From: Pseudogymnoascus verrucosus | Lineage: Eukaryota | Length of the DNA stretch: 64,000 nt | Direction: 5' to 3' (one strand) | Assembly: GCA_001662655.1 (NCBI GenBank) | Contig: KV460220.1 | Shown: positions 2,736-60,998 of the stretch, piece by piece | How positions within the stretch are numbered: position 1 is the first letter of the stretch | How the letters are laid out: each line of letters starts with the position of its first letter | Notes under the pieces: model-generated | Database searches by the model: none | Told to the model about the DNA's origin: nothing | Seen by the model: the letters and a program-made list of their open reading frames with translations, nothing else | Position numbers and translations under genes: made by a program

Positions 2736-4065
2736 AGGGGGGAAGGGAGTTGTGAAGGGGGGGCGTGACGCAAGGGGGGAGTGCGCACGCACGGCATATG
2801 CATAACATAGCACACGGCGCTGTTTTTTTTTACTCATGTTACTGTCTCTCAGTTTTTTTGTTGTTGTTTTATCATCGTCCGTCGATATACTTTTTCCTTT
2901 TTGACATACCCTGATGGGGGATCACACACTTCTCAAAAACTAATGGATTTCCTTTTTGTGTTTCGGGGCTGTTGTTTTCGTCTATGATAGTCTAGATGTT
3001 TAGGGATGCGTTTTTGTATAATCAGGAGTGGATGGGAGGGTGGATGATTTATAGATAGACAAAATACCCGTGGTCGTGGTTGTCGGGGAGGTTGCGTAGA
3101 AAGGGGGATGAATTGGGATGAATGCAGAATTTTAGTATTTCACCTAACTGCCTATCTGCCTTGCCTGCCTGCTTGTTATAAAAATGTCTCATCGCCCATG
3201 TTTTTGTACTCTTCAGCCTATATGAGAGATAATCGTTTCCTCTGGTATCTATGTCGTGTAGTCCGTTCCACCAACCAAACAGCCGTTTCGTATGTGTTGC
3301 AAAGTCCACTCGCCTATGTCGGCCATTGGCGAATAAACAGAGCGTACGAGATGCGTATGGGCGCACTGCAGCATGTCCCTGCAGTGTGATTATGCCATCC
3401 GCGCACGCCGCGTCGTCATACGGCTATAGATAGTGGCAAGAAATCGGAATCGATAAAATCTTTATATCCAAGAGAATAACTGCAAATTCGCGATTCTATT
3501 CTGGTATCAATCGTTATTATACCAATCTTCGGCAGTCAGTAGCAAAAGTAAGCTGATGCCAAGTGTGATAGAATGTCGCCACCTCACGTGTGCACCACAC
3601 GACAGGTACACATCCCCCCCAAACCCCCCCATAAGTAGAAACACCACACAGAAACACCACACAACCACCCAAACCCGCCCCACTGCCGAGAAAGGACCAA
3701 GATAAGACTCACCCACCACCACCACCTCCCCAACAAACTCTAAACCAATCTCTTCACCACCGTTCACCCCCTCACCGGCAAACGACCCGACTCGATCAAC
3801 CGTCCCGGAATCAAAATCTAATCCCGAATCCTCACACACCGACGCTTCTCTGTATCGGCGCAGGCGTCCGGCTGCACAGCGGGGTCCGTCTCGAGAGATC
3901 GATCGCCGATATCCGCCGCTGCGGGGCAGACGACGACGACAGACACGGCAGTGCCAGGCACCCACGCCCATCAACGACGCTCTATCGACTCAGTCGTCAC
4001 AGCTCGATTAAACGGCGCAGATTGACCTCTGAAGGTCTCTGCTCGATCCCCCAAATCCATCAATC

Positions 4066-36729: not shown

Positions 36730-38148
36730 ATGGCACGACCAGAGGAGACTGGCCATGGTTCTGCCACCTTTGGAACATTTGAAGACCTCGGCCTCGCAAT
36801 AATCGGCCTTGGTGTGGAATATCCGGCGTTCCAGCTCACCCCGACAGATCTCAGGACTCTGGTTAAGCGTCATTATCGGGACTCTCCTGCGTACGTCGTT
36901 CCTGAGCTTCACTAGGCACCACTAACTTAGTAGTATGTCCAAAGTCATGACGATTAACGACTACACCGGCATAGACATGCGCTCCTCGATCGGTACTATC
37001 GACGATCCATTTGTGAATAGGAAAAAGGCGCCAGCCATTGCCGAGCTTAGCAAAATATTTATGAAAGAAGGGGTTGCCCTCGCCGTTACCGCGGCACAAA
37101 AAGCCCTTACAGAGGCAAGAATAGATGTCTCTGATATTACACATATCGTTAGCACTACATGTACGAACAGCTCAAACCCGGGATTTGATCACTACGTATG
37201 TAAGAAGCTTGGAGTATCGCACACAGTTGAAAAAGTCTTATTACACGGCGTTGGCTGCGCGGGCGGGCTGGCAGCGCTTAGAACGGCTGCGAATATTGCA
37301 ATGGGTTCTAGTTTTCGGCGGAGACCAGCAAGAGTACTTGTAATGGCCCTTGAAATATGTACCTTTCTTGTCCGGAGCGAGATGGATAGCATTGACAAAT
37401 TTCAAGAAACGAGGATAGGCGTCTCGCTGTTCAGCGACTGCGCCAGCGCGCTAGTTTTGAGTAACGGGATTGGAGCTGAGTGCGTCGAGGAGCCGATATA
37501 TGAACTACTGGGCTGGGGCCATAAGATCATCCCCGATACCGACCGAGACTTGGGGTTTAATGTTGACCCATTAGGTGAGACATCCTGTAGAAAGGGGCTG
37601 AGTATTACACATACTGACGGACCATAGGCTGGAAAGTCGTCCTCTCACCTCGAGTTCCTAAGATTGCCGAGACAGCCGTAGACCCAATATTCAGAAACCT
37701 CCTATCATCAATACCTGGTCTCCCTCCTACCTACAACACCCCAGAGTCTTTCGACTGGGCCATGCACCCCGGCGGCGCCACAATCCTCTCTGGCGTAGAG
37801 AAAGCTATGGGAATAACGCCGGAGCACATGCGCGCATCATATGATATCTACATTAATCACGGAAACAGCTCCGCAGCAACAATCATAAGTGTCATGGATC
37901 GTCTACGACATAAAGATATGGATGCATGTGCCCCAGACGGAAAGGTCAAAGATTACGTAGTGGGATGCGCTTTTGGGCCAGGGATGGCCGTCGAGATGTG
38001 CATGCTGAAAAGGAACTTGAGCCATCGAGGAAAATCGCTACCAACCGGAGTAATTACACTGCCAGAGACGGAAAGTGAAGAGAGCAGGAGCGATGGCGAA
38101 GTTGAGCTAAGTTTGAGCGAAGTCTTAAACGGAGTCGATCTTGACTGA
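36730..38148 (+). CDS. Type III polyketide synthase (chalcone synthase superfamily, resembles Neurospora ORAS alkylresorcylic acid synthase), 3 exons
   Basis: LGLAIIGLGVEYP, STTCT, catalytic Cys in HGVGCAGG, LFSDCASA, His in MHPGGA, Asn in HGNSS, AFGPG. Introns 36891-36930/36933 and 37575-37627. Confidence 0.93.
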
Positions 38149-38973: not shown

Positions 38974-40461
38974 ATGATGTTCAACAGCCATTTCCTAGTC
39001 CTCGCAGTTGCCTTTGGCACATCATGGCTCTCTCTACCTGTAACAGGTAGTGTGATACCTAAAGAACAAATCATAGAAAGCCGCCAGGACACAGGCAATA
39101 AGTGGGTGGATACATGGACATCAATGCCCCAACTCGTGGAACCAGGCAACCTGCCCCCTTCGCCATTCGTAAGAAGCTAAAGATATAAAATCTTAGGCAA
39201 CTGGAAAGCATGCTGACTATGGCAATAGACATCACAAGGTGCTGTTTTCAACAATGCAACGCTTCGCCAGACTCTCCATGTTTCCATTGGAGCTGATAGG
39301 ATTCGACTCCAAATTTCAAACACTTTCGGCGGCAGCGACCTCCCGATCACCGAAGCTGCCATCGCTCTCCCTACAGGAGGAGAAGCAGGAGTTGGTAACA
39401 TTGAGCCGTCACCGATAGCCGGTCTTACTTTCAACGGAGCGACGTCAGTAACAATCCCGAAGGGCGAAGTAGCATACTCAGACCCGATTGACTTTTCAGT
39501 TGCGGCTGAATCAATGCTTACTTTAACCCTCTATCTTGCTGCTGGGCAGACCAGAAACAGCATTACAGGTCACCCTGGGAGCCGGACAACGTCATGGATG
39601 CAAGAGGGCAACCAAATTGATGCAACTAGCATAACTGGATCGAGCGTCGCCCATTGGTAATAACTAGTCCCAATATACACCTCACTTATTTATAGCCTGA
39701 TAGCTAATTCGCTATGCAGGTATTTTGTGAGTGGAGTAGAGGTGTGGGTTCCAGCGTCTCTAAGCAGTTTTATCATTCTCGGCGACAGCATCACCGACGG
39801 TCGTGGCAGTGACGATAACAAGAATAATCGGTAATAGCACCATCCCATGGTTCCTAACTCAAAATTAACTTTCAGCAGCTGGCCGGACTTGCTCCTTGCG
39901 CGGATGCAGACAAGCCAACTCACCGCAATAGGAGTTGACAACCAGGCCGCAGGAGGCAACCGCGTCCTCCAGGATGGCCTCGGCCCCAGCCTAATCAGCC
40001 GGTATAAGCGTGATGCTATTGGGCAAGAAGGCGTAAAATACATCATGATCTTTGAAGGCGTCAATGATATTGGAACGGCAGGGACTGACCAGAATACCCA
40101 AACTCGACTTGGAGACAATCTCATATCTGCGTTCACGCAGATCGCCAATGATGCACGCGCCGCTGGGATTCTCATCTTTGCGGCGACAATCACTCCGTTC
40201 TCAGGGCCAGGGCAGTCATATTCCGACCCTACACGCGAGAAAACACGACAGAGGGTTAATTCCTGGTTTATATCAAGCGGGCTGTTTGATGCTGTTGTTG
40301 ATTTCGATGCGGTCGTTCGTGATCCGGCGACTCCTTCGCAGTTGGCACCAGAATACAATAGCGGAGACTATCTACACCCTAATGTCGCTGGGTATCAGGC
40401 TATTGCGGATGCATTTCCTTTGGACATCTTTACGGCTACTGCCAACAAGCGTACGGTATAG
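38974..40461 (+). CDS. Secreted SGNH/GDSL hydrolase (esterase), 4 exons
   Basis: Signal peptide, WVDTWTSMPQLVEP, block I GDSITDG, block II GGNRVL, block III EGVNDIG, block V DYLHPN. Introns about 39169-39228, 39657-39719, 39831-39878. Confidence 0.88.
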
Positions 40462-40598: not shown

Positions 40599-41722
40599 CT
40601 ATTCTCCCGACGGCCCAGTGATTTTGGTCCCCAGTGCTCCAGGAGATCCAAAGTTTGGCGTGTTATCAGAATTCCAGTTTACTTTTTGTGCCATTGTATA
40701 TCTCGTCCCATCACACGCTCCAGCACTGTTGGCATCCGCATGGTATACGTTCCAGATCTCAGTTCCATCTGGGCTCTGGAAAAATCTGCAATATGTTAGG
40801 AACCATGTTAGAGTGGAGTTAAGGATATTGGACGTACCCATTGTGACCTGCGCCATAATTTCCGTTTGCAGAGGTCAAAAATGGCCCAGTCTTCACCCAG
40901 CTTGCGGCTTTAGTTGGGTCCCCGCCATTCCAGGTCAGGAGCCCCAGCTGATAGCTGGCGGTCCAGCAGTCGCTCGCACTGTATGCCAGATAAGTCTTTC
41001 CACCGTAGTACATTGCAACTGGCCCCTCATTAACTGGGTTTCCAACAGTCTCCCAGGATTTCGTAGGCTGGGATATAACAGTGGTGGCTCCAACTGAGCC
41101 TGGCGAATTAAGTGGTGCGATACAGAGCGATTGGAGCCCGGCGCTGCTAAAGCAGGAATAGACAAAGTAGTTGGCAGAGGTGGTGCGGAGGATGGAGCCG
41201 TCAATTCCCCAAGTGTTCATTAATGTAGCAAGATGGCTGTAGCTGTCAAAAGGTGTAGCACCACCTTGAAGTATAATGTTAGATCCAGGGAGGGGTTTTC
41301 AGCAGAACAGAACACTAACCTTTGAGAACATTGGGACGCTGCCCGTTAAGATCGGCTGAGGTGCCAGCGGTATAGTAGATATACCAGCTAGAATAATTCA
41401 GCTAATTATATTGGAAGGCCTTGATCGGAGAGACTCACAGTCCATCAAAATAATGAAGCTCAGGCGCCCACATATTGCAGCATCTACTGGCAGTTTTGTC
41501 GGTCCAGACAATTTTGGTTTCTCCTTTCTTGAGTCCTTCGAGAGTGGTAGCCCGAGTGATTTGCAAATTAGTCCAAGTCGTTGTCATCAAATAATAATAA
41601 CCGCCTGTGTATACAATGTGAGGATCAGAGCCATCTTTCGGTTTCAGTGGGTTTGAGAAGGTTGCCGCGCTAACCAGGGAAGTCAGCGACAACGCCGTGG
41701 TAATGAAAGTAAAAAGCTTCAT
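40599..41722 (-). CDS. Secreted glycoside hydrolase family 43 (alpha-L-arabinofuranosidase-like), 4 exons
   Basis: Signal peptide, GSDPHIV, WAPELH, WGIDGS, VNEGP, YSAS, GHNGFFQSPDG, YHA. Introns about 41438-41388, 41319-41265, 40837-40787. Confidence 0.9.
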
Positions 41723-42628
41723 TGTGCCTGGTTAATTTTAACAAGCAACGGCTCTGTAATAGGCAACTGTGTCAGAGCGATAAAGGGAAACTCCATCGCT
41801 TTATACGATCAATCGCGAGGCTGCAGAAGCTTGTTCTGCGAGGTAAGTTCCACCAATTATATTCATATATTAATTAACTTATTGCATCAGCCTTTCTTGA
41901 CATTGAATATAAAGATCCAAGAAATAAGATACATTAAAAAGCTGGGCGAATGACGGAGGCACGAAGCCTGTACGGAAATTTAAGATTCCGGCAGTTGGAC
42001 TGCATGTTATCGGCGCAAACCGCACATTGCATAGTGGTTGTGGGGTAGAAACATCAGCAATTCCAGGGTTGAAGGGTCTTAACGTGGTTGTCTACGACGG
42101 CACTCACATCACCGCCTGACGGCGCCCACCAGTTTATGGCCGTACATAGTAGCTAGCAAACATACCACAGTACAATTATAAAATTGAAGCAAAATCACTC
42201 GTAAAATCCACTAATATTGATATGGTAAGCGTACATTACGATGCGCCAGGCAGCTATTACATATAGTCGGTTTAGAGTCTACAAAATACCGTGGGGGTTA
42301 ACATCTTAACTTAAGGCACTTCCCCCTTAATATCACGGACAATTATATCAGCATTCGCGTTGATACGCCCGGCACAGATTAGCTAGCATCATCAACCTAC
42401 TCCAAGACTTTCGGCGACACTATTTCAAATAAGCGCCAGTTAAAGCGGAGGAGCCTTCCCCGCATACCCCGCAAAGCGGAAAACCCAAATAGCCTGAAGA
42501 GACCTGGAAAACCTTACTCTAGTAAAGGGATGGATAACGTTCCTTATGTTGAAAGCGAAGGCTAATATTTGCCCGTCTGCACCACCAATTTAATTGAGAA
42601 GTATATTTTCACTAATATTTACACCCTA

Positions 42629-44640
42629 ATCGTCGGAACCGACCCTGACCTTCGCTCAGGGTCGGGGTAAGCGAACGGCGTTCGGGGAAGCGGTCGGCGT
42701 TCACCGCTATTTCATATCGCCGGCCATAGCCTCAACATATCTATAGCTAGTAATTTGTATACAACAACTGTGTAATTGAAATGGAAAACCCAATTTTGTC
42801 AGATGCTCGTAAATGGCTTGCTGCAAATCCATCGGAATCTGTTGCTACCGCAAGCCGGATTTTCAAAGTGCCAAAATCAACGCTCCAATCCTCAATTACT
42901 CGACTTAATCGTATAGGAGTCGGCCGTGGAGGCCAGAATAAGCTTCTTACAGCTACGCAAACGAAGGCTCTTAAGGAATGGATCACTACGCAGTATAAGC
43001 AAGGACTTGGAGCTACGAAGCAGATGACCTTTGCTGTTGTTTGCTATATTCTACGACCGAAGCCACCGCCTTCCTATAGCTGGCTTACAAAGTTCATTAA
43101 GAATGAGCTATCTGATTTTCATATTATAAAGACAAAGCCTATTGCTCAACACCGGGTTGAAGCCTAAGATGAAAGCGTCCTAGAAGAGTGGTTTTCGAAC
43201 TATCATGAGTTCGTTTCTACTCATAATATACAGCCTGATTCCATATGGAATATGGACGAGACTGGGTTTCAGATTGGAATTCCAGGGGGTGAGAAGGTTA
43301 TAGTTCCACACGGAGTTACAGAGCTATATACAGGGAGTCCTGAAAACCGTACTTTAATTACAGTAATTGAAGCTATATCAGCGAGTGGGAAAGCTACTCC
43401 GCCTGTACTCATTATTCCAGGCAAAGTCCATATGGAATCATGGTACCATAGAAGTCTTGTTGGTACAGAACAGGTTCTATTATCAGAATCAGGTTATACA
43501 AACGACGAGCTTGCGATTAAATGGCTTAATCACTTCATTTTCCATACGCAAAGCACCCCTATTTCAAACGCTAAATTACTACTATTAGACTCTCATAGTA
43601 GCTACCGAACGCCAGAGTTTACTATACTCGCAGCAGAGAATAATATCCTCATTTATACCTTTCCATCACATCTTACCTACGTTCTACAGCCGCTAGACGT
43701 TGGGGTTTTCCAGCCATATAAGCATTGGCATCGCGAAGCAGTCCATACTGCAATACGGAACTTCGACCTTGAGTATAACCTACGCTCTTTTATGAGGGAT
43801 CTTCCTATGATACGGGAGAAAACCTTTAAAGAGCTTACTATTACTCACGCATTTAAGAAGGCAGGAATATGGCCTATCGATTGTAGTATTGCGCTTTTAA
43901 AGCTATAGAAATATTCAAAGCCAGCTCCTACTTTACCAACGATTATACCAGCCTCTTTTCAAGAGTCCGAAGCGCAATTACAGCACTGGAAAGTGACGCT
44001 TCCAGTTCTACTCAGTAGCCCATCTCGACAGCGATATAACAACTGGGTTATTGGTACAGAAACGGTATTAGCTCACGGGCAACTTCAAGAATTCAACCTC
44101 TCGATTCTACAGCGGCAGGTTGACCAGCACAAGAATAGAGGCCGTAATAGCCGGTTACGCCTACAAATCGGAGGAGCTCTTACCGTAGATGAAGCCCGAG
44201 CTCTACAGACTGAAAAGGCAGAGCGAGTTGCGGAGAAAGAGGCAGCCAAAGAAGCCCGGATAGCTCGTCAGGCTAGCAACCAAGCCCGCAAGCAGCTCAA
44301 ACGGGCAGGAGTTGAAGCCCGGAAACAAGAACGCCTCCGGAAGAAGAGGGTAAAAGCCTATAAAAAAGATGGTAATCCAATTCCTCCGGAGGATCAAGAT
44401 CCAATTCCAGATCCAGAGGCAGAGAGCGAAAGTGGGATTGGGAGTGGGAGTGGGAGTGAGGGCCAGTTTGAGTGGGACGGATATGAGAATTACGAGTAGT
44501 TGATCAATTTAAGTACCTTTTCATATAAATTACTGTGTAGTGGTACTTATTCCTTCTGGTGTTCGTGAACGCCGACCGCTTCCGCGAACGCCGTTCGCTT
44601 ACCCCGACCCTGAGCGAAGCTCAGGGTCGGTTCCGACGAT
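42629..44640 (+). mobile_element. Complete Fot1/pogo-type (Tc1-mariner superfamily) DNA transposon, 2,012 bp
   Basis: 76-bp TIRs at 42629-42704 and 44565-44640 (2 mismatches). TA flanks at 42627-42628 and 44641-44642. Internal DDE transposase. Confidence 0.95.
42781..44499 (+). pseudogene. Pogo/Fot1 transposase with two in-frame premature stops
   Basis: One reading frame with N-terminal HTH, NMDETGF, LLLDSH, QPLDVGVF. Stops TAA at 43165-43167 and TAG at 43906-43908, no frameshift. Confidence 0.92.
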
Positions 44641-45022
44641 TACATTCGACAAAATATTTGATATTTGATAAAAACGGAAAAATAAGTCGGGTATAGACGG
44701 AATTTGAAATCCATATGTTGACAAGGGATATCCATTGCAGTTGGCATCTTGGCCGGCCTGTGATTTCTGGTTCATCTCCCCAGAGGATCATTAAACCCGT
44801 CAAAGGATCGTCTACATCAAACTGTCAAAAGCTGTTGTTGGCATGCACAGGCCAAACCAGAATTATAATAACAGAATTCCCACCAACATCGCGTTTCCCT
44901 TCCCGTTCTTTCCTTCCCTCACTTTTCAGTCTCAATTGGTAGTGGGCACTGGTGAACATCAAGGACGATGAAATATTTGGTACCATGTATTAAATTAAGA
45001 TTTTCCTCTCTCTTCCCTAGAT

Positions 45023-47314
45023 TTACGCTTCCTTCAATTGCTGCCCTTGGCCCTTTCCCCTCCGTACAAACTCTCTCAGCACATTATCAGTCATTCTAGC
45101 TACATTGTTGTCATATGTATCCCAGGCCATACTACCATACCAGTTGATACTGCCAACTGCGAATACCGCGCCACCTCCGGCAGTGTCATAATATACCAGG
45201 TCGCTTCGGACGCGGTCGCAGTTCGAACCCAGAGTGTTCACCATTGGGAACATAGACTCCTCATTGAAAAGTCCAAAGGTATCGTCATGCTGCTCGCTGC
45301 TTCCCAGGAGGATCGCATTGGTTGGAGTTCCAAGGTCAAAGTCCAAGCGATCAATCTCGTCACCGCTGGCACCACCGCCAAAGCCATTCTCGCCAATGGG
45401 CCCATTGGGATCGATGCCCTTAAAAACCCATGCAAGCGCAGGATCCTGAGCATATTTTGAGTTTATCCTATAAGGCTTTCCTTTGCCAGTACCGAACGCA
45501 CACGATCCCATGCCGAAGAGGTAGTTGGGAGCGCGGCCTCGGCTGCGCCAGAGTCCTCCCAGGTTCCCGGTGAGACCGTGCATTCGTTCCCCTGCGGGAA
45601 ACGTCACAGACCGACAACCTTGATCACCTTTACGGACTTCGAGACGATGAGGACGCTTGGAGTCAATGTCGGCGACCCAGTAGAAGCCATTGCCGCCCAA
45701 GTACATCAAGCTACCGCCTGACTTTGCAAAGCCGCTAAAAGCATCGAGGGTTTGGAGAGAATGGTATTCGGGATGACAGCTACTTATCATTGTCGTATAT
45801 TGGGAAGCTGCTTGATGGCCTCCAGTGTGCAAACAATGGTCAGTGATGGTATCATACGGAATTCCAGAGCGTTCCAGGAAGTCAATCATGAGAAGATCAG
45901 CGCTAAATTCGCGAGGTCGGCCCAGTGCCCAGTGCACGTATCCAGGCCTCAGATTTAATATGGGTCTAAGGGCACTAGAGAATGCAGTTGGGGAACCGTC
46001 TCTATGAACATCGTAAGCCGAGAGTCCTAAATCCGGGCGCCGATCTAGGCCCTTAAAATATTCGTGCTCATCTGCAATGCTGACCCCATCAGGGGTTGTC
46101 ATTGCTGATGATCTAGACATGTCGAACATCCGTTCGTTGGCATATGCAAGATATGTGAAAGTTGACAGAACCAACGCCACCCGTGCCGTAGATTTTTGAT
46201 TGGGACGAACGAAGAAGGTGATCATGTCGCTTACGCCGTTCTCACACTTGACTTCAACGGCATATGCACCTGAGCGAGCTGTTGATGGAATTGTGATGGA
46301 GAAATTCGTCCCCCATTTCGCGTCGTCTAGATCATCTTCATGGAAATGGATAGCTCCGTACCCGTAGGTCGCATGAGTCCAATCAGGCTGAGAACCATCC
46401 CAGTTGTATCCTTTCACGGCTCGTGTTGGTGCATTGACGAGGGCACCGTGGCGACTATTTCCAGAAACGTCGACAATAGAGTCGCTTGAAATATCGCGAG
46501 AAAAGTCATACTGGGCTAATATCCGCGGCGTTGGCCCTGTCGCCGTAAAAGAAGGGGAGTCAAGTCGGCCATTGAAAAAGCATGCCGGCTTGTAGCTCTG
46601 CTTGTCAACAGATTCGAACATGCCCGCACCAAACAGTAAGGCATTAGACCCTAAAGAGATCGGTGCCAACAAGTTATGCGTCGTCTCTTCTGCAGAAGGG
46701 GCAGTCTCTGCCAGACGGTTCAATTGCCGGATGTTCAAAGTGATCGTCTTCCCAACGAGGCTCATACGGATATGGAGCCAACGCCAGCGATTGATAGGGT
46801 ACTGACTCCGGATCACATCGACGTTGCTGCCAGTACCTATAAGGAACTCGAGTTTTGAATCCTTTATAACCACGGCAAATCCGGTTTTAGAACTTGCGTC
46901 AAGGCACGATATGATTGTTTGGCAATGGTCAACGTCAACCAAGTATGGTTGCACATGACAGTCTACTTCAAAGCCCTCTTCAGCTGCACAATGCGCTTCA
47001 GACCAGGAGGGTATAACAGCATGGGATCCCGAGCAGGCAGATTGATAGCAGCCATCATCGCGATTTCCCGAAGGGACTTCAGTTATCTCCTCCTCTTTGA
47101 CTGGTGGGGCATGAGTAGAACCGCTATAGCCCTGGATGAGGCGTACTAAACGATGAGAGTAGTTTTTCTCGGTGGATGAAATCTTGAAGAGTCAGCTTGG
47201 GAAACATGTCTCGTTCAATGATAAACACACTTTAATATCAACTGGCTCTCCTGGCGAAACAATCCATGGTTGAGCATAACCGATTATTTGAGGGTCTTTG
47301 TCGTTGTGAGACAT
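45023..47314 (-). CDS. N,N-dimethylformamidase large (beta) subunit-like protein, about 747 aa, 2 exons
   Basis: Exon 1 MSHNDKDPQIIGYAQPWIVSPGEPVDIK, intron 47230-47183, then RLVRLIQG, FNGRLDSP, YGAIHFHEDDLDD, TYLAYANE, GLSAYD, RPILNLRP, HPEY, YLGGNGFYW, GDEIDR, YDNNVARMTDNVL. These match my recollection of the bacterial DMFase beta subunit. Confidence 0.88.
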
Positions 47315-47369
47315 GGCTTGAAGTTCGCCGTAGCTTTGTTATGGGGAAGGGGTATGCGGGAGCTCGATA

Positions 47370-48270
47370 TCTCGATAAGTATATTGATTGTGTGAGAACT
47401 TAGGTGTTGCCAACCACCTGAAGATAGAGGCGAAGTGATACAGATTTAAAAAAGCGGCCAACTCTATCAGCATAAAATCAGTAGAACAACAAGGGCAATA
47501 GGTCTGAATTCTTATCCCTTGATAAAGATATCAAGGGTTTATAAACCCCTTGCCGACGCTTATCTTTGAAGTTTACCAGCGACATGGCTTGGGCATTAAA
47601 ACGATGTCCACTCTTTGGTATCCACGTTCTCCTCACATGCTCACACGCAGGTGGATATAGTTGCTACATTAGGAAAGAGAGGGGATTCGCTAAATTCAAC
47701 TAAGCAACCGACTAAATGGTGGTGCCGACAGGCTAATTGTCCGAGATAGACTTTGATCCAATTAAATTGCAGGGTCGGCTCAGTAGCGTCGCCACTCGGA
47801 AGATACGTCATTATAACTTGACCACATGTTCTCCATAATATGGGGACCTGGATTCGACGACAAGCTTGTTCCGAAAGACGGGGTAACGGGTCGGCTACCA
47901 CGTAGCATTGGGAACCTCCACCACACTGAGAGCCTCCGCCGCTATCGCCCTTGCCCCCCGGGACGCGTCCGTCGGCAAGATAAAGCGGAATGGAATTCCG
48001 ATAATGTAAATGGAAACATATACAGTGGGACTCATATACAGTGGTCGCAGAAGTCGATAAGATAACCAATACCGAATCCACTGGCTATGGTAAGTTTATC
48101 TTATGGGCAGCGAACATGCTTATCAGACCGTATCTTCGAGTTGCTGTTGTTAGTTCACAATGCAAGAGCCGGACCACTCCCGAGGGCTCTAGCGTCCTAA
48201 AACCCGCTAATGAGGCAGCCAAATCTTGTATTTACTCTAGAAATAGAGTTGTAATCATATTATCAGCTCT
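47370..48270. promoter_or_regulatory. GATA-site-rich divergent promoter (putative AreA/NIT2 sites) between the DMFase-like gene and the MFS permease
   Basis: GATAA/TTATC at about 47374, 47511, 47521, 47559, 47979, 48000, 48056, 48061, 48095, 48119 and 48259. Confidence 0.55.
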
Positions 48271-48603: not shown

Positions 48604-50274
48604 ATGGCTGATCAAAACATTCAATTCGTAGGGGATGCGAAATCGACTGCACCTTCAGCGACCCATTCAGATAAGCCAGCTACAGAGATGGTAGAGACGA
48701 TGCCGGTCACTCTAACAGAAGAAGACGTATGTTAATTACATACCCCATCAAAGAAACTCGCTGAACTCTCCTAGAATACTCGAATCAGGAGAAAAACTGA
48801 TAGAGTCATCTTGGCTCTATTGACCTGGGTCTACTTCTTGCAAGTTTTGGATAAGGCCGTCCTTGGAACTGGGGCGGTTTTCGATCTCGCGAAGAATGCC
48901 AACCTCACGGGTCATCAGTATTCCCTAATCGGGTCGATTTCGCCAATAGCGCAGTTAGCATGGCAGCCGTTCTCGGCCTGGCTGATTGTGAAGGTGCCGC
49001 ATCGCACATTAATGCCAATTCTGATTCTCGGTTGGGGTATTGCGGAAGCATCTATGGCTGCGTGTAGTTCCTTCTCTGGGTTGATCGCCTGCCGTTTCTT
49101 CCTCGGCCTTTTTGAGGCCGGCTGCATGCCTCTATTTGCGATCATCACAAGCCAGTGGTACCGTCGTGTCGAACAACCATTTAGAGTCTCTATCTGGTAT
49201 TCCACAAATGGTATATCGACGATAGTGTCTTCTGCGTTGTCTTATGGCCTTGGCCGTATTGTATCCAACGTGTTGTATCCGTGGCAAATGTAGGTTGTCC
49301 CCATCCACCGGCCACCATGAATACCTTGCTAATATCAACGCAGAATTTTCCTTTTCTGTGGACTTGTCACTATTATAACGGCTCCATTCGTCTACTGGAA
49401 ACTGGATAACGATATCGCGACAGCCCGTTTCCTTACCGAGGAGGAACGCCAACAAGGCATCGAACGCCTTCGGACAAACAATACTGGTGTTGAAGACTTC
49501 CACCAGTTTAAGTGGTCGCACGTTTTGGAAGCGGCTCTAGACCTGAAGACCTGGCTGTGGCTTGTGCTGGCCATGCTGCCGAACCTCGGGTCGGCTTTGA
49601 CGAGTGTCTTTGGGCCGCTCATTATTACTGGCTTTGGGTTCGATAAATTCCAGACATTGCTGCTGAACATTCCTTTCGGAGCCGTCCAAACGCTCGTGAT
49701 CATCGCTTCCTGCTGGGTAGCCAACAAGGCGAAGCTCAAGGGTGTTATCCTGCTTGGCTTCATGTTACCTGTGGTGGTTGGAACTGGGATGCTTTACGGG
49801 CTAAACCGGAATGCATCGGATCGACCAGCGCTACTCGTGGCGTACTATCTCACGGCCTTCTTGTTTGCAGCGAATCCCCTACTTCTCGTGTGGGTCGTCG
49901 GAAACACTGCTGGAGAGACCAAGAAATCCGTTACTCTCTCGCTATACCAGGCTGGTTCGTCTGCTGGAGCCCTTATCGGTCCGCTTCTATTTAGCGCAGA
50001 CCAGAAGCCAGAATATCGCCCCGGAATTGCGGGTGTTCTTGGTGTTTTTGTCGCCATGATTGTGGTCATCGTGCTGCAGCTCTTCCTCCTGATATACCTG
50101 AACAAGCAACAGGTGAAGAGGAGAATCGCAAACGGGAAGAGTGGCGTTATTGTTGATCGGTCTATGACAACCGAAGTTCATACTGATGGGAAGACTCGGG
50201 ACTTGCTGGCTGAGGAGATATTGCCCATGGACTTAACGGATAAGCAGAACGATGAGTTTGTGTATATTTACTGA
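48604..50274 (+). CDS. MFS anion:cation symporter, allantoate permease (Dal5)-like, 3 exons
   Basis: RRKTDRVIL, YFLQVLDK, RFFLGLFEAG, WYRRVEQPFR, ARFLTEEER, NTAGETKK, C-terminal DLTDKQNDEFVYIY. Introns 48727-48774 and 49290-49343. Confidence 0.9.
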
Positions 50275-51067: not shown

Positions 51068-52143
51068 ATGGCTTCTGCCTTAAAATCATACCCTCCGGGG
51101 ATCCACGCCCCTACCGTGACATTCTTCCTTCAGGGAGAACAACAGGAGATTGATTGGGCGACCCAAGAAAAGCATCTCGCGTACTTGGTCAAGGCTGGCG
51201 TACATGGCAGTATGTTTGCTTCCGCATGATATAACACTATTACTAGACGAGTAGAGCTGATTTATTATAGTTGTTGTCGCCGGCTCAAGTGGTGAATCGT
51301 GTGCGCTTACTTTGGCCGAGAAGGGCGAGTTGGTCAAGAGGACCCGTGAGGCAGCAAAGGCAAACGGAAACCCAAATCTCCCCATCACCGTGGGCTGCTT
51401 AGGCGGCAGCACCAGAGACATTCTCGAGCAGACTATAACTGGGCACAAGAACGGCGCCGATTTTGCCCTGGTGTTGGTACCGAGCACATTCCACTGGTCG
51501 ATGACCAAGAAGGCCATCGTCGACTTCTTCGAGGATGTTGGCGACCGCTCCCCAATCCCCATTATAATCTACAACTTCCCGAATCTGCTGTCAGGGCTGG
51601 ATGTAGACTCGGAAATGTTGGAGAAACTTAGCGCCCACCCGAACATCTGTGGTGTCAAATTGACCTGCGGAAACATCTCAAAAATGACGAGAGTCGCAGC
51701 ACTGAACCCGCCGAGTCAATTCGCGGCTGTGTCCGGACAAAGCGACTTAATTGTCTCTGCGTTGGCTGGTGGAGGAGCAGGTACTATCTCAGGTGTTGTA
51801 AACCTGTTCCCAAAGGTAAGTCCAGACAACCACCAAGGTAGCTAGTTTCGGTTACTAACGCATTTCGCAGGTCCTGATTGAAATTTATAATCTTTACAAC
51901 GCTGGAAAGCTTTCGGAGGCGATTGCGCTGCAGAAGAAGGTTTCCGGACCTGAATGGGGAATTGGAACGTCCGATGTCAGCGGCATGAAGTGGATTATCG
52001 CACAGGAGCGTGGCTATCCGGAGTCGAGCCGTGACTGTCGCCGACCATTCCCCAAGTTTGACGATCCGGCGAAGAGAGAGCGTGTACAGAAGTACGTCGC
52101 GCCGCTTCTCGCGCTCGAGCAGGAGCTGTATTTGAAAAATTAA
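51068..52143 (+). CDS. DHDPS/NAL-family class I aldolase (HOGA / 2-keto-3-deoxy sugar-acid aldolase-like), 3 exons
   Basis: PPGIHAPTVTFF, VAGSSGE, IIIYNFP, Schiff-base Lys in GVKLTCG, GTISGVVNLFPK. Introns 51210-51270 and 51815-51870. Confidence 0.88.
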
Positions 52144-52243: not shown

Positions 52244-54025
52244 TTAAATTATCGCAAAGTTAACGTTGAACAACTCTAAGCATACAGACCGAATATCGAC
52301 GCGGGTCCCTGCCTCTCGCTGCCTTCTTTGAATCTCTTGTAGTACATCCGCCGTCATATTCGCATTGCTGGCAACATGTTGGAGACTACGAATCGTCTCA
52401 AGGAGCCATTTACACTCGTCATAATCGTCCTCCTCGCTACCCCATAGGAATAACGGCCATAACATATTAACTGGTATAGATTCGTTACTGTTGACCATGA
52501 GATGCACTATTTCCTTAATTTTGCATAGCGCTGTATCCACCGCTTTCGAACGATCCAAGTGGCGATGGGCGACTCTATGGAGGTGAATGTAGCAGACGTA
52601 AAAGTTGGCAAGATATGTCCGGTATGAGCGAATGATGACCGACGCGAGTGGCCCAGCGAGAGTGTCACTATTGATATTTCCTGATACAGCATGATCCATA
52701 AGCGCAGGCCTCGTATCATATATAGAAGACAGATCCTTCAAAATACCGGCCGCAATAGCCATCACTTCAGTCTCGTCCTCCACACTCCCTCGGCTGCGGT
52801 GACCATGGGCAATTCTAGCTATGCGGCCCGTAATGGTCTGGACTTCTTGGAAGAAGGCGATCCCGGGCTGGCATAGCATGTCATATATAACCTCATGCGG
52901 CCCGGAGTCTGGGGGGGGACTTGGACTGGATGGATAAATTCCAGATGTATCATTTACCAAGAGTCCTTCCCCACCAGTCAGTGCCGCCCGGGCATCTGAC
53001 CATCGGATCCAAGAGATGATTCTCTGTTCTAATGGGGCGATTGTTAGCACGAATAGAATTAGGTTAGCGAGAACGTTCTTCTACGAACCTAAAGAGCCCA
53101 GGGCACCCCTGCTTGACGTCTGCAGCGCCTTATGCGCCTTTGCAAGATTCAAGTAGGCTAAATCCAGCCGGCCAGTTAAAAACTCCAGAAATGGTCAGCG
53201 AAAGTAAACAATAGATCCACAAGGATTCAATAGACTGACATTTACGTATGTAAGAAAGAAGATAGTGGTCAGAACGTATCTAAGTTCATTACTGTTGACT
53301 GCCAGGCTTCCCCCGGATTTGTGAAATCTTGCTGATAGTTCATTTGCAGCTTTATCGTAGTATGTCTGATAATCCACTTGTTTCCCCCTGGTATAAAACT
53401 GGACGGCGGCGAACGCCGCCATCGCATAACGAACCATAGGAGATGAGGTTGCCATACTGTCAAACAGTGCTCGCAGAGAAGCACATATCGGACCGTTTTC
53501 GACAGGATCTAAAATCGGCGTCGCATGTAATAGTAGCGAGTATTCCTCGTCTACATTGGTAACTAGGGACTGTGGCAGGGACTGTGGTGGGGACTGTGCC
53601 GCTGCAAGAGGTGAACCCTGGCTATCTAGGTCGGTAGATCGCTCATGCAAGGCGAGTCCCGGCACAATAGAGTCACCAAAGTCGGGAAGATATATATCTT
53701 CAATGAAAGAAAATCCCGGCGGGGGATCCGTCATGGATTGTGCGAAGTCAAAGAGGTCAGCAGAAGGAGACAGCCAGTCATCCTCCAATGACGTGGCGTC
53801 AATCCCCGGGGGATCTCCTGCTGCCGCATTCGTCGGTGGTGGTCGCTGCTGTACGGTGTCTTTCCACACACATTCTAGATTCAGGCGCTGGCAGTGGTAG
53901 CACTGGGGTCTCTGCTCATTGCATCGGACCTTTCTTTTTTTGCAAACCAGACACCCATTTCGCGACCGCTGAGGATGAACCCGAGGGTGGCTAGCACCGC
54001 GAGAGAGAAGAGGTAGAGAGCTCAT
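52244..54025 (-). CDS. Zn(II)2Cys6 transcription factor with Fungal_trans_2-type C-terminus (TF1), 3 exons
   Basis: RSRNGCLVCKKRKVRCNEQRPQCYHCQRLNLECVW, C-terminal LWPLFLWGSE. Introns 53239-53183 and 53088-53029. Confidence 0.9.
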
Positions 54026-54882
54026 AATTCTATTCCAGGAAAGACAATGAGGGATAGAAGGAAACAAGGTCGCTGATGCTATGATGGAGGTTCATGAGTG
54101 ACCCCGCTTTCTTAGTCGCGGCGGCGTCGTTCCGGAACTCCCCCCTTATCAACCCCCGCGATAGCACAGTGGGGTTACCAAGACAGGAGCGGAGCGCACC
54201 CATATTCACTTTCACCGCCTAACATACACCGCCCTATCAATTCAGTAAACTAATAGTAAATTCGGCAGAATATTAGCCTATTTGTCTAACTATAGCTAGT
54301 GTGGAAGTGGAAATGCTTGAATGGTTGTAACCCGCAGACCAAGATCAGCCTCTAACCTCCCAAACCGTTATTGGCGATTTATTTTGATTTTCTCACATAA
54401 AAGTCTTGCGGCCTCTATGAGTTTGGTATTTTGGCTTCATCAGCAGCAGAATATGAACACCTATGCTCTAGCGCATATCCTACTCCAATTACCCAACTAT
54501 CGCATGCTTGTTTGCTAATGTTGCTATCGCCCCTCTTCCCCCCTTTAAGTGGGACCAACAATATTACCGTAATAGGAAGTTGAGTTATCAGTCCCCACTT
54601 CCCCGCGCTATTCACAGCCACCCCTGCTTAGCGTCAATTGGGCCACATGGACCCGATCGCTTACTTTCCCAAAGAGTTTCCGAGCCGATCGGGTTGTCAA
54701 CCCGATAATGTGCACTCGGTGAGTAGTAGTGGCAATGGTACAGTTCCTCTGTACTATCACTCTACCCCACCTGGGAATTTATAAAAGATGTTGTCTGCGA
54801 TGTTGCTCAGCTTTAACATTTTAATTATTGTCAGCAAAAATCTATCCCAGAATCCTCAACTCATCAATTTCTATCATTAACC

Positions 54883-56119
54883 ATGGCAGCTCTTCCAGAA
54901 GGCGTTGCAAAGTCGTTGGAGGAGACGAAGGTCGAGTATAAGCGTGTGGGAAACAGTGGTCTCCGGGTGTCGTCTCCAATTATTGGGTGTATGAGCATTG
55001 GAAACCCGGAGTGGGCAAACTGGGTGGCAGGGCCAGAAAAGGCCCTCCCACTCTTGAAAGCGGCATATGACCGAGGAATTAACACCGTTCGTCTTCTGCT
55101 CTCCGTTTAAAGAAAAATAATATTAACTCGAGGTAGTGGGATACAGCAAATATCTATTCCAATGGAGATTCTGAGAGAGTTATCGCTCAGGCGATCAAGA
55201 AATACGATATCCCACGTCACAAGTTGGTGCTGATGACGAAGGCATTTAGCTGCGTTGGAGAGCAGCAGTTTCACGCATACCCAATCCTGGATGAATTGAG
55301 GAGGACCAAGGACTACGTTAACCAGTTCGGTCTTTCGAGGACAGCGATTTTTACTGCACTGGACGCGTCCCTCAAGCGTTTGGAGACAGATTACATAGAT
55401 TTCTTCTGGATTCATCGTTTCGACCCAGATACGCCAATTGAGGAGACTATGCGTGCTCTTCATGACCTCGTCACTGCGGGGAAGATCCGTTACATTGGAG
55501 CTTCGTCCATGTGGACATACCAATTTGCCTCCATGCAGTTCTGCGCGGAAAAGAACGGGTGGACAAAATTCGTTGCCATGCAAGTATGTATAAACTATGG
55601 ACATCCAGTATGTTGAGCGATTTGAAGTGCTAATATCCGAACAGAACCGTTACAACCTACTGTACCGCGAAGAAGAGCGCGAGATGATTAAATTTTGCAA
55701 CGAAACAAACGTGGCTGTCATCCCAGTAAGTAAATATCATTTACTACTTCCACTACGTGGGCTCGTTGTTGCATGTTCTAACAATTGTCTGTCAGTGGGG
55801 TCCTCTTGCAGAAGGACAGCTTGCGCGCCCATTGCAAGTTCGCGGAACAACTACGCGTTCCGAAGGCTCCCCGCCCCTACGCAAAGAGTCCACGGAAATC
55901 ATCAACAGAGTAGAGGAACTGGCAAAGAAGAAGGGGTGGACTATGGCCCAGGTTACGCTCGCATGGACCATGAAGCGAGTAACGACTCCTATTATTGGCT
56001 TTAGCAGCGTCGAGAGGATCGAGGATGCTTTATCGGCACGCGGAAAAGAGCTTACACCTGAAGAAGAGAAATACTTGGAGGAAGTTTATACTCCTATGGA
56101 GATTGAGGGTCATTTCTAA
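54883..56119 (+). CDS. Aldo-keto reductase (aryl-alcohol dehydrogenase / Kv-beta-like subfamily), 4 exons
   Basis: [66 protein letters not shown]. Introns about 55087-55136, 55584-55644, 55726-55795. Confidence 0.92.
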
Positions 56120-57180
56120 GAGCATAGGTTTCCTGTTTTCTTCCTCGAGAGCTGCATAGTCGTGCCCTCTGCTTGTATGGCTATTCATAGTTTTTTACGC
56201 ATAGCATTTAGATAGATATTAGCCTATTACAAAAGTAAAATATTCATATAATCACGCAAGATTGTTCAGAGGATGCGAAACTCGAAGTTTTATTGTTTTG
56301 TCTCGTAACATAAACCAAACAACCTTTCTATGTCACCAACTGGTCTTTGTGGTAGATTATACGATTTGTATCAAAAGCCCATATCTATCATAGGAATCTT
56401 ACACTTCCAATTAGTAGCATGCCGTTATAATATATGGTATGTGCTGCACATAATATGATAAATGATCATTTACCGGTGTGCTTGTTTTGATATTGAAATT
56501 TGCATAATACTACAAGTAATAAAGCCAAGAGAATACAGATATTAAATTATGTGCAAATAGAGGTCAACAGCCACAGTTCTCACTTCGCGAGCTTATCAAA
56601 AAGCTTCTCTCATAATGCCAGGTGAGACAAGTTTGACCTATTCTCAGTTGCCTAGGTGGGTAAATATTTGCGACCCCAGTGTAATTTTACCCGTTAAGGG
56701 AATCCGCTCTCCTGCTGCCAGCATCCGACAGCGAGTGTCTTCATGGAGGTAACAATCTACGGTGGTCCCTGGCCCACATACCCGATTAGGCATTCTTGTC
56801 GTATGAATAACCTGGGGCGACGACAGTGGGTCCGCGCTAAACGAAGGGTACACTTCGTGGGGCATCACAACCAGGAGGGGCATGAATTGCCTGTATAAGT
56901 CTTGTTATGACAATTAAAAGACTAATTAGAGTTAAACATCAACAGTTTCCACACCCTGTTAAGCAGATCTAAAGCAATGGGCCACTTGCGTTATTAGGTA
57001 TTACTATTTCGAGCTATCTCAATTGTGGAGACCTTTACCTGCCCTCGTAACAATAAATCGGCCACAACGCCCCTCCATCATATAATAAGCAACTTTCTGG
57101 CATTTACCCCTCCTTCACGATAAGCATCTCCAAACCTTCATTTCACTTTACCATTCATATCACAATTCAACGAAGTCAAA

Positions 57181-58179
57181 ATGGCTACCATGGAGAAAGT
57201 ATTCGCTGGCTACAATGCGCGACAGAGCGTTTTAAACGCGAGCAGCAACCCTCTTTCGAAAGGGATTGCCTGGATCGAAGGAGAGCTCGTTCCGCTCGCC
57301 GAGGCTCGCATCCCGCTTCTCGATCAAGGTTTCATGCACAGCGATCTGACCTACGATGTTCCATCTGTCTGGGATGGGCGCTTCTTCCGCCTCGACGACC
57401 ACATCACAAGACTGGAGGCCAGCTGCACAAAACTGAGACTGAAGCTTCCTCTACCCCGAGAGGAGGTAAAGCAAATCTTGGTAGATATGGTCGCTAAGAG
57501 TGGCATTCGCGACGCCTTTGTCGAGCTCATCGTCACCCGCGGACTTAAAGGTGTCCGTGGAAACAAGCCAGCCGACCTAAAGAACAACCTCTACATGTTC
57601 ATCCAGCCTTACGTTTGGGTAATGGAACCCAAAGCCCAGCCTACCGGTGGCAGCGCCATTATCGCCCGTACTGTGAGGCGAGTTCCGCCTGGATCCATCG
57701 ACCCAACGATCAAGAACTTGCAATGGGGAGATCTCGTGCGCGGCATGTTGGAGGCGGAGGATCGTGGAGCCGATTATCCCTTCCTGACAGACGGAGACGC
57801 CAATCTCACTGAGGGATCGGGTTTCAACATTGTCCTGGTCAAGGATAACGTCCTCTACACCCCAGATCGCGGTGTTCTCCAGGGCGTTACTCGCAAGAGC
57901 GTTATCGATTCCGCCAAGGCCGCTGGCTACGAGATCCGCGTTGAGTATGTGCCCGTTGAGTTGGCCTTCCAAAGCGACGAAATATTCATGTGCACAACTG
58001 CCGGTGGCATTATGCCTATCGTAACTCTCGATGGCAAGTCTATCAATGGCGGCAAGGTTGGCCCTGTCACGAAGGCGATTTGGGATGGGTACTGGGCGAT
58101 GCATTACGATTCCGCATACAGCTTCGAGATCAACTATGAACAGAACAAGACAAACGGTGTGAACGGTTCAGCGAAATAA
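57181..58179 (+). CDS. (R)-selective amine transaminase (PLP fold type IV), intronless
   Basis: [28 protein letters not shown] Lys in [26 protein letters not shown]. Very similar to my recollection of the Aspergillus terreus (R)-omega-transaminase. Confidence 0.92.
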
Positions 58180-59093: not shown

Positions 59094-60380
59094 ATGGCCT
59101 CATTTAATTCGAGCGATAGCATTGTTATTGTTGGGTAAGTTTTCGAACGGCATTTGGACAATATTTTCTTCAAGGTACTGACTATTTGGAGTGCGGGCAT
59201 CGTTGGCCTCAATGTTGCTTTAGTTCTCGCCGAGAGAGGATATGGACAGTCGATAACTGTCATTGCCGAGCACCATCCGGGTGACACATCTATGACATAC
59301 ACATCGCCATGGTGAGTTTTCTATGGAAATGAATGATACTCCAGCTATGCTAATATCTCATCAGGGCGGGTTGCAATTTCTCTGCCATTTCTGGGAGTGA
59401 CGCCAACGCGTTGAAGTGGGATCGACTGGGTTACTCCCATCTCACCAAGCTCGCATCTGAGCGACCCGATGAGACTTTCGTTCACCGGACTCCATCGACT
59501 GAGTTATGGGACGAGAATGTCCCCCATGATAAAATTAAGGCCATGTCAGAGTACCTCGAAGACGTAAGGTCGCAATTCTCCTGGGCCATCGGGACTGTAC
59601 TAACTGGCCGCAGTTCAGAATTTTACCCGAAGAAGAGCTCCCTGAGCAGGTCAAATTTGCAGTCTCCTTCACTACATTAACCATTAATGCGCCTAATCAC
59701 CTTCAGTACCTCTACAACAGATTAAAACAGTATGGCGTGCAATTCTTACGACAGAAGATCCCCAGCATTCTATCAGCATTTGCGAGTCCGACGACCAAGG
59801 TCGTGTTTAACTGCATCGGTAACGCAGCAAAGACGTTGCCAGGTGTTGAAGATGCCAAGTGCTATCCAACCAGGGGCCAGGTTGTTCTGGTCAGGGCGCC
59901 TCAGGTCCGATCCAATGTTATGCGTCATGGCAAAGATTATGAGACATACGTGATTCCTCGCCCAGGATCCGATGGGAATGTTATTCTTGGTGGCTATATG
60001 CAAAAGGGGGTTGGGTAATATTAGACAAGTCCTGACAATGACCAGTCGCTAATGAAACTCTCAGTGACGGGGCAACTTACTCATATGAGACGGAGTCCAT
60101 TTTGGATCGCACTACACGGCTGAGCTCCGAGCTTCGTGAAATGGAGCCTCAAATCCTGGCCGTCTTTGCTGGACTTCGGCCTTCTCGCGAAGGTGGGGCC
60201 CGCATAGAGAGAGACGAGCTCATTGTTGCCGGTGACAAGCGAGTTATTGTTCACAACTATGGTGCAGGTGGTACTGGGTTCCAAGCTGGCTACGGCATGG
60301 CTATGGAGGCTGTTAAGACTGTCGAGGACGTATTGCGGGAGATTCGAAAGAACGATACTCGGCCAAGGCCTAAGCTATAA
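59094..60380 (+). CDS. D-amino-acid oxidase family FAD oxidase with PTS1-like C-terminus, 5 exons
   Basis: Spliced IVIVGAGIVG, YTSPWAG, PTRGQVV, YVIPRP, ILGG, GLRPSREGG, HNYGAGGTGFQ. Ends in PKL. Introns about 59135-59191, 59312-59364, 59564-59612, 60015-60064. Confidence 0.9.
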
Positions 60381-60864
60381 ATAATATGGGACATATAGGT
60401 TTGTCGATAGTCTTGGGTTTCGTAGCCTTCAAAGACGAATAATTCATTGCATTTTGAATAATCCGGCTCTTCTACATTCCCATCTTCTTTCATTTGTTTC
60501 TCGCGTGAATCTCGAAGTGCACCGGCGACGAGCGAGATTACAGCGAAGTACAATATTCTTTATCTCATCACTAACATCTATCTCCTTAGTTGGGGACCCA
60601 TTGAAATAGCGCGCCGATAAGACAATTAACTGCTCAAATATGGGCTTGAAATATTATATAAGGGCGTTCTGGTGTGTCGTCACTTTGTTGGTAAGTTGCC
60701 AGAAAGCCACACCTTATCGACGACACCACTCTGTCCCTGTGGGACCTTGTTGTTCGCTATCGGTGAGGTAGGGTGACATCCGATATCCGATATATCCGAC
60801 ATCCGACGAAATAAGCGACATTGGCGACCCGCGACCCTTGCCTTGGCGACCCTTCCCTTGGCTA

Positions 60865-60916
60865 CCCTCCCCCGCATACTCCCCTTTCCCCGCATAATCA
60901 CCTCCCCCCGCATACT
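60865..60916. promoter_or_regulatory. Three tandem CCCCGCATA boxes (CreA/Mig1-type SYGGRG on the minus strand) upstream of TF2
   Basis: CCCCGCATA at about 60870, 60888 and 60906. Confidence 0.45.
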
Positions 60917-60998
60917 TGGAGATCGGTCTCCTATCTTCTCTTATCCCAATTCGCAATCGCAATTGCAAAAAACTACGACAGCGAAACCATCCACCACC

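Follow-up and report, generated by a model that had tools for sequence, protein, structure and literature searches.

An intact, spliced fungal gene of the N,N-dimethylformamidase large-subunit family in Pseudogymnoascus verrucosus

Positions 45,023 to 47,314 of a 64,000-nucleotide stretch of Pseudogymnoascus verrucosus DNA (NCBI GenBank assembly GCA_001662655.1, contig KV460220.1; the whole stretch is hereafter called the window) contain, on the minus strand, a two-exon fungal gene that is intact and spliced. Its product of 747 amino acids is, by alignment, a member of the large-subunit family of N,N-dimethylformamidase (DMFase; Pfam DMFA2_C) and is related to the bacterial dimethylformamidase. 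The reading of the locus as an intact, spliced fungal gene for a 747-amino-acid amidohydrolase of this family is held with good confidence. It is carried by the gene model, by full-length homology to solved bacterial enzymes, by the retention of the predicted iron ligands and by the close fungal relatives of the protein.

Gene structure and evidence for splicing

The minus strand carries an open frame of 722 codons (45023..47191) and, just upstream of it and in another frame, a short open reading frame (ORF; 47192..47338) that contains MSHNDKDPQIIGYAQPWIVSPGEPVDIK. Without splicing, the reading of exon 1 meets a stop after 44 codons. Removal of a 48-nt intron (Table 1) joins 28 amino acids (P0002) to 719 amino acids (P0001), which gives the length of about 747 residues expected from a first, sequence-only reading of the locus. 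The junction is ungapped in fungal orthologues, which read VDIK-ISSTEK or VDIK-VSSTE. Exon 1 also extends the homology, since the fungal IIGYAQPWIVSPGEPVDIK, followed after the junction by ISST, is aligned with bacterial IRGYCDRLSAAPGETIRFYVSAD; bacterial large subunits have PGETIRFYVSAD opposite PGEPVDIK-ISST of the window.

A contig of 2512 nt from run X1 covers positions 44974-47182 and 47231-47478 and omits exactly the 48 nt between them; the omitted stretch ends in CT..AC on the plus strand, that is GT..AG on the strand of the gene. The source of this contig is a related organism (~92% identical, 165 differences over 2209 nt), and its extent, limited to the amidase gene and short flanks, is transcript-like; the four runs were compared as contigs, none is on record as RNA, and X1 was only guessed to be RNA. 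The intron stretch is retained in contigs of run X13 (taken as DNA, a kind that is not on record), where a diverged copy has non-triplet indels within the intron. The fungal-like metagenome contig L062 (loci are given by L numbers; identity 64% where it matches) is interrupted by its first intron at the equivalent phase-0 site (3205-3256, 52 nt, with a GC donor, GCAAGT...AG). The G+C content is 0.485-0.495 across the gene and 0.435-0.50 around it, with no anomaly. Together with fungal-type neighbours, including Zn2Cys6 transcription factors, the X1 contig and the intron position in L062 bear out the earlier proposal of a canonical 48-nt intron in a genuine fungal gene.

Protein family, fold and iron site

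The Pfam family PF20254 (DMFA2_C) matches residues 253-691 of P0001 over profile positions 1-373 of 374 (E 1.2e-100, 338 bits for a cut-off of 27). A Laminin-G-like match at about residues 98-188 of P0001 is weak (20.5 bits for a Pfam cut-off of 22.9), and the NCBIfam search of the protein gave no family match. Among solved structures, the best match is the large subunit of Paracoccus DMFase (6LVB chain A; E 1.4e-109, 371 bits), aligned in one stretch (query 4-708 with chain 30-756), as had been foreseen in the claim of homology to the bacterial beta subunit along the whole length. N-acetyl-(R)-beta-phenylalanine acylase (8HUY) is matched almost equally (E 4.4e-104, 353 bits).

An AlphaFold2 model built from a 60-sequence alignment reached a predicted local distance difference test (pLDDT) of 93.8 and a predicted template modelling score (pTM) of 0.92. 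Foldseek superposed this model on 6lvb_A with a template modelling (TM) score of 0.92 and a root mean square deviation of 2.7 A, a comparison that the sequence-only reading had proposed, and on 8huy_B with a TM score of 0.87. The next-best matches were single Laminin-G (LG) domains (TM 0.15-0.19), and none other exceeded 0.2. The predicted structure thus retains the three-domain fold of the DMFase large subunit.

Residue correspondences were taken from the printed 6LVB alignment, checked by script, and conservation was counted in alignment A3 (60 rows, 39 fungal and 21 bacterial). Excerpts of PMC7686228 describe the Fe(III) of Paracoccus DMFase as liganded by Y399 and Y440 (monodentate) and by E521 (bidentate), report that the mutants Y440A, E521A, H519A, N547A and E657A are inactive, and propose N547 as oxyanion stabiliser and E657 as catalytic base. 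According to the same excerpts, the adjacent large subunit narrows the pocket with its F693 (PMC7686228); this Phe restricts DMFase to small amides. The motifs YLAYANE, GLSAYD, HPEY and GDEIDR are all present in the window protein, and the Tyr/Tyr/Glu site named in the sequence-only reading is found in the alignment: Y399, Y440 and E521 of 6LVB correspond to Y375, Y418 and E500, so that the predicted ligands of a 2-Tyr-1-Glu mononuclear iron site are kept, with the metal ligands aligning in 60/60 rows. The codons of these and of the other catalytic positions are listed in Table 1. The position equivalent to F693 is more variable, being F in 35/39, Y in 3/39 and G in 1/39 of the fungal rows and F in 5/21 of the bacterial rows.

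Conservation of the six catalytic and metal residues argues for a working iron amidohydrolase, and their invariance across 39 fungal sequences of several paralogues implies purifying selection on catalysis.

Comparison with characterised enzymes

DmfA2 of Paracoccus sp. strain DMF (6LVB/6LVC/6LVV; EC 3.5.1.56) resembles the window protein over the full length in its three-domain architecture, and Y399, Y440, E521, H519, N547, E657 and F693 are identical in the two. They differ in sequence (~32% identity) and in setting: the window gene is interrupted by an intron and resides in a eukaryote, and no small-subunit gene adjoins it; on plasmids pAMI2 of Paracoccus aminophilus and pLVM1 of Methylobacterium, by contrast, dmfA1 lies immediately ahead of the gene for the large subunit. 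The DMFase clade and the fungal clade are also separate in the LG+C20 posterior mean site frequency (PMSF) tree described below.

The acylase (8HUY, 8I59, 8I5A) has family, fold and the same six catalytic positions in common with the window protein. The 8HUY entry consists of a single molecule in chains A and B, with no small subunit deposited. Its identity to the window protein is ~32%, the N-terminal 50 residues are unaligned and the Phe equivalent to F693 is not conserved.

Annotated but uncharacterised fungal orthologues, among them DNG_00011 of Cephalotrichum gorgonifer (P0004) and the Pseudogymnoascus protein P0003, are 73-89% identical and have the same N-terminus across the splice junction (VDIK-ISSTEK). 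P0003 has the same 747 amino acids in length, and these orthologues show no difference of substance from the window protein. In UniRef these orthologues bear the name [quoted passage not shown].

Search for the small subunit

Two authentic DmfA1 proteins, used as tblastn queries, had no match at E<=10 anywhere in the 64 kb of the window. A hidden Markov model (HMM) of 16 alpha-like ORFs, run with --max against the 1551 ORFs of at least 25 amino acids in the window, yielded nothing above noise (best match at E 0.17, 8 bits). The earlier statement that no alpha-subunit ORF lies next to the gene therefore holds for the whole window.

In the loci fetched for comparison, 33 alpha-like ORFs were detected (by phmmer, then HMM), mostly directly upstream of the large-subunit gene. 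A profile of alpha alignment A4 was searched against 5.8 billion proteins and gave 448 matches, of which the best 120 all belonged to PF26354 (DMF_alpha, the Pfam family of the small subunit DmfA1); the 13 organism-named records among these best 120 of 448 were all bacteria, with no fungus. In a tree of 102 rows, 28 alpha-linked rows fell within one clade of 30 rows, and 56 bacterial rows had no alpha gene nearby. Absence of the small subunit thus appears, in this sample, to be the common state of the family and the rule in most of its bacterial subfamilies. On this point, and in view of a fungal family that is large and already labelled, the sequence-only reading overestimated how unusual the gene is.

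Two other arrangements of the alpha-like domain were observed. Loci L036, L042, L044 and L109 carry it as an N-terminal fusion to the large subunit, and in the metagenome loci L090, L096, L098, L111 and L120 an Abhydrolase_3 ORF ends in it at the C-terminus. The latter ORFs (297-498 amino acids from stop to stop) have an esterase-type body and immediately precede the gene for the large subunit.

Fungal and bacterial relatives

Of 8000 candidates scored in the protein search, 2672 were relatives at E<=1e-10. The best match is V490_02222 of Pseudogymnoascus sp. VKM F-3557 (P0003; 89% identical), followed by proteins of Penicillium, Aspergillus, Talaromyces and Cephalotrichum (73-77%) and by a second tier from Eurotiomycetes, Sordariomycetes and Dothideomycetes (49-57%). 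The organism-named rows among the best 120 of the 2672 relatives are all Pezizomycotina (Leotiomycetes, Eurotiomycetes, Sordariomycetes and Dothideomycetes), with the exception of one record filed under "Candidatus Bathyarchaeota archaeon". This record (P0056) is a partial protein of 490 amino acids, 75% identical to the window protein; as it is far closer than any fetched prokaryotic locus (<=44%), it is probably fungal DNA in an archaeal metagenome bin.

An exhaustive search of 1.84 billion representatives returned 3267 clusters at E<=0.001, of which 892 at E<=1e-30. The scores show a gap after the first 13 clusters (454-718 bits, then <=438), so that about 13 clusters look fungal by score; eight of the 13 were looked up, and the five with organism names are from Hyphodiscus, Aspergillus, Fusarium and Diaporthe. 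The 59 fetched prokaryotic genome loci are 26-44% identical to the window protein, and 75 plasmid records all lie below 60%. A metagenome scan found no relatives when the query was the single protein; with alignment A2 as query it gave 61 loci, of which L062 (64%) and L063 (54%) are fungal-like by identity and L066 (45%) is intermediate. The fungal DMFA2_C family is widespread and already annotated in public databases, and the window gene is an ordinary uncharacterised member of it. A literature search on dimethylformamidase in fungi returned no fungal enzyme among the titles and abstracts listed.

Phylogenies were inferred with IQ-TREE (quick, LG+G4, 95 rows), with FastTree (the 102 rows mentioned above) and with IQ-TREE (quick, LG+C20 PMSF, 49 rows, Planctomycetota-type outgroups), on a bacterial sample that is biased, its loci having been picked by two short motifs common with the fungal proteins. 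All three trees contain one fungal clade (support 100), whose stem measures 0.95-1.5 changes per site, with at least three paralogue subclades (Aspergillus carlsbadensis and Exophiala xenobiotica are each represented twice), and in all three the window protein is sister to P0003 (support 98-99). The position of the clade varies. FastTree places it outside the alpha-linked clade with a support of 6, at another point than the LG+G4 tree, and under the better-fitting LG+C20 PMSF model it belongs to a polytomy, while the alpha-linked rows form a single clade (support 93) that does not include it.

One fungal clade, named members from Pezizomycotina only, a large bacterial family and a normal G+C content fit an old, single acquisition from bacteria, followed by duplication and by vertical descent with losses. 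Of the earlier suggestion of an ancient bacterial origin, the part that stands is thus its consistency with the trees, in which one long-stemmed fungal clade lies in a large bacterial family; the transfer itself is probable, and the trees point to no particular donor.

Genes flanking the amidase gene

The features of the gene and of its surroundings are collected in Table 1. The transposon downstream has terminal inverted repeats of 78 nt (97% complementary), and its DDE_1 transposase frame is broken by two in-frame stops (42754-43164, 43168-43905, 43909-44496). The divergent transporter gene of the major facilitator superfamily (MFS) matched only generic MFS clusters in the protein cluster atlas. 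No homologue of the window MFS, DHDPS, transcription factor, transaminase or oxidase was found in the flanks of L062, L063 and L066 at E<=1e-5.

Table 1. Features of the amidase locus and its surroundings in the window (residues in full-length numbering).
Feature	Position	Strand	Remarks
Exon 1, 28 codons, MSHNDKDPQIIGYAQPWIVSPGEPVDIK	47231..47314	-	ATG at 47314; conserved N-terminal strand of the family; aligns with fungal and bacterial N-termini
Intron, 48 nt, phase 0, GT..AG	47183..47230	-	donor GTGTGT from 47230; AG at 47184-47183; CTGAC branch-like motif
Exon 2, 719 codons (P0001)	45026..47182	-	beta-sandwich domains and DMFA2_C catalytic domain
Stop codon TAA	45023..45025	-	
Tyr375 codon	46142..46144	-	iron ligand Y399 of 6LVB; Tyr in 60/60 rows
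Tyr418 codon	46013..46015	-	iron ligand Y440; 60/60 rows
His498-Pro-Glu500 codons (HPE of HPEY)	45767..45775	-	essential H519 and iron ligand E521; H and E each 60/60
Asn526 codon	45689..45691	-	N547; 60/60 rows
Glu637 codon (in GDEIDR)	45356..45358	-	E657; 60/60 rows
Phe673 codon	45248..45250	-	F693, pocket residue of the partner subunit; mostly F in fungal rows
Type III polyketide synthase gene, two adjoining ORFs	36926-38145	+	chalcone/stilbene synthase N- and C-terminal domains
GDSL lipase	39838-40458	+	
GH43 fragment	41438-41731	-	
pogo/Tc5-type DNA transposon, 2.0 kb	42627-44642		ends ~380 bp past the amidase stop (downstream)
MFS_1 transporter, at least 2 exons	48604-50271	+	ATG at 48604; head to head with the amidase gene, ATGs 1289 bp apart
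DHDPS-family gene	51261-51842	+	best solved match 3QFE
Zn2Cys6 factor	52247-54091	-	
Aldo/keto reductase	55594-56116	+	
Class IV aminotransferase	57124-58176	+	fungal (R)-amine transaminases 8ZM7 (1.2e-188) and 4CE5 (1.1e-186)
DAO-family gene, three ORF pieces	59139-60377	+	largest piece 59539-60015, best solved match D-amino-acid oxidase 1C0I (7e-20)
Second Zn2Cys6 factor	60777-63214	+	

In Fusarium subglutinans, the model FSUBG_4575 (P0248, 1111 amino acids) combines DMFA2_C (210-612) with an MFS transporter of Sugar_tr type (662-1087); this may be a genuine fusion, or annotation may have run two adjacent genes together. Its MFS part has no BLAST similarity to the window MFS. A search for longer merged models gave one match, a JGI/ENA sequence that is 35% identical. 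Among bacteria, parts of ATP-binding cassette (ABC) importers lie beside 7 of the 20 alpha-less loci scanned, and single loci adjoin a class IV aminotransferase (L080), a class III aminotransferase (L013), a DAO (L028) or a D-Ser-dehydratase-like gene (L020), and also RidA or GNATs. These bacterial neighbours, although anecdotal, fit the uptake and breakdown of small nitrogen compounds.

To our knowledge, the fungal (R)-amine transaminases are employed mainly as biocatalysts and have no established natural role, and literature searches on such a role gave nothing relevant among the records listed. An (R)-transaminase converts pyruvate into D-alanine, from which a D-amino-acid oxidase would regenerate the pyruvate; the adjacency of the two genes in the window may point to a natural role of these biocatalysis enzymes.

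Proposed function and alternative explanations

If the enzyme works as its bacterial relatives are proposed to do, Fe(III) on the 2-Tyr-1-Glu site would activate water and polarise the amide carbonyl, with E637 as base and N526 as oxyanion stabiliser, and the C-N amide bond would be cut to give a carboxylate, of formate or acetate size, and an amine. The enzyme is probably cytosolic, no signal peptide being apparent by eye at its N-terminus, and by analogy with most bacterial subfamilies and with N-acetyl-(R)-beta-phenylalanine acylase it probably acts without the DMFase small subunit. A homodimer may form, because the pocket Phe of the partner chain is kept. N,N-dimethylformamide (DMF) is a synthetic solvent. 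It is described as having no known natural source in the abstract of bioRxiv 10.1101/2019.12.17.879908, and is an unlikely natural substrate; the better candidates are small N-formyl or N-acyl amines, or derivatives of amino acids, that serve as a source of nitrogen or carbon.

Several points weigh against this reading of the gene. The intron-less contig is of guessed RNA and comes from a relative that is ~92% identical, not from P. verrucosus. The small-subunit search covered the 64-kb window, so that an unlinked alpha gene is possible, and a fungal alpha that has diverged could go unnoticed by a profile of bacterial sequences. Organism names were available only in the best 120 matches of each protein search, and members outside Pezizomycotina could have been missed. 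Since the same six residues occur in both a formamidase and an N-acetyl-beta-phenylalanine acylase, they give no information on the substrate. Two further points, which also bear on the need for a partner, are that the Paracoccus large subunit alone is inactive, according to an excerpt of PMC7686228, and that the LG+G4 tree sets the fungal clade beside the alpha-linked locus L009, within the alpha-linked portion of the phylogeny (support 96), with a long-branch warning.

These last two observations would be expected of a heteromeric formamidase, that is an N,N-dimethyl- or N-substituted-formamide deformylase needing a small subunit encoded elsewhere, as would the slightly higher score of 6LVB relative to the acylase (371 vs 353 bits) and the retention in most fungal rows of the F693-equivalent Phe that 8HUY lacks. 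Such an enzyme is nevertheless regarded as quite unlikely, for no alpha-like ORF occurs in 64 kb, none of the 13 organism-named records in the best 120 of 448 alpha matches is fungal, the fungal clade falls outside the alpha-linked one under LG+C20 PMSF, identity to authentic DMFases is 31-34%, and the abstract on DMF cited above gives it no known natural source. A catalytically dead binding protein using the lectin-like beta-sandwich was also considered, in view of the Laminin-G matches, which are below the Pfam cut-offs in sequence and at TM 0.15-0.19 in Foldseek; with six catalytic and metal positions intact and invariant across 39 fungal sequences, a pseudoenzyme is very improbable. Bacterial contamination or a very recent horizontal transfer could be suspected from a family that is overwhelmingly bacterial (3267 clusters, about 13 of them fungal-looking by score), but is given next to no probability: the intron is of spliceosomal type and is exactly missing from the contig of a related organism, the protein is 89% identical to Pseudogymnoascus and 74-77% to Penicillium, Aspergillus and Cephalotrichum as against <=44% to the fetched prokaryotic loci, and the G+C content is that of the flanks. 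This candidate was rejected as refuted by the intron, the fungal identities and the fungal neighbour genes.

A more specific proposal makes the amidase the first enzyme of a catabolic gene cluster at this locus, for an N-acylated (R)-amine or D-amino-acid derivative. Uptake by the MFS transporter would be followed by deacylation by the amidase and by transfer of the amino group from the (R)-amine to pyruvate by the (R)-transaminase, yielding D-alanine, which the D-amino-acid oxidase would return to pyruvate and ammonia; the aldo/keto reductase would take the carbonyl product, and the route would be regulated by one of the Zn2Cys6 factors or by both. The gene order (a divergent MFS, then DHDPS, Zn2Cys6, aldo/keto reductase, transaminase, oxidase and Zn2Cys6), the matches of the transaminase to solved fungal (R)-amine transaminases and of the oxidase piece to 1C0I, and the amine and amino-acid enzymes (L080, L013, L028, L020) or ABC importers (7/20) beside some bacterial relatives are in its favour. 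Against it, the 3.2-kb upstream flank of L062 is without these neighbours, the merged Fusarium subglutinans model carries an unrelated transporter of Sugar_tr type, and in the window four genes and 10 kb separate the amidase from the transaminase, with a transposon on the other flank. We regard this cluster as unlikely, if still a reading with some claim to attention. The broader proposal that the fungal clade consists of alpha-independent iron amidohydrolases, so far of Pezizomycotina, which descend from one ancient transfer and here perform the first step of an amide-to-amine-to-ketone cluster, is speculative and rather improbable in its entirety.

Significance for the family

The intact, spliced amidohydrolase gene of the window adds little beyond public annotation, and its main value is that the gene model is clean and well supported. 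Two bacterial activities have been characterised in the DMFase family, and one of these has a man-made solvent as its substrate. The fungal clade, with several paralogues, intact catalytic residues and no small subunit in the window, offers simple single-gene targets, and its proteins may be useful for finding natural substrates of the 2-Tyr-1-Glu iron site and possibly new amide-cleaving biocatalysts. The neighbourhood of a transporter, an (R)-amine transaminase and a D-amino-acid oxidase suggests a testable pathway; if the cluster reading were true, it would provide a physiological role both for this enzyme family and for the fungal (R)-amine transaminases.

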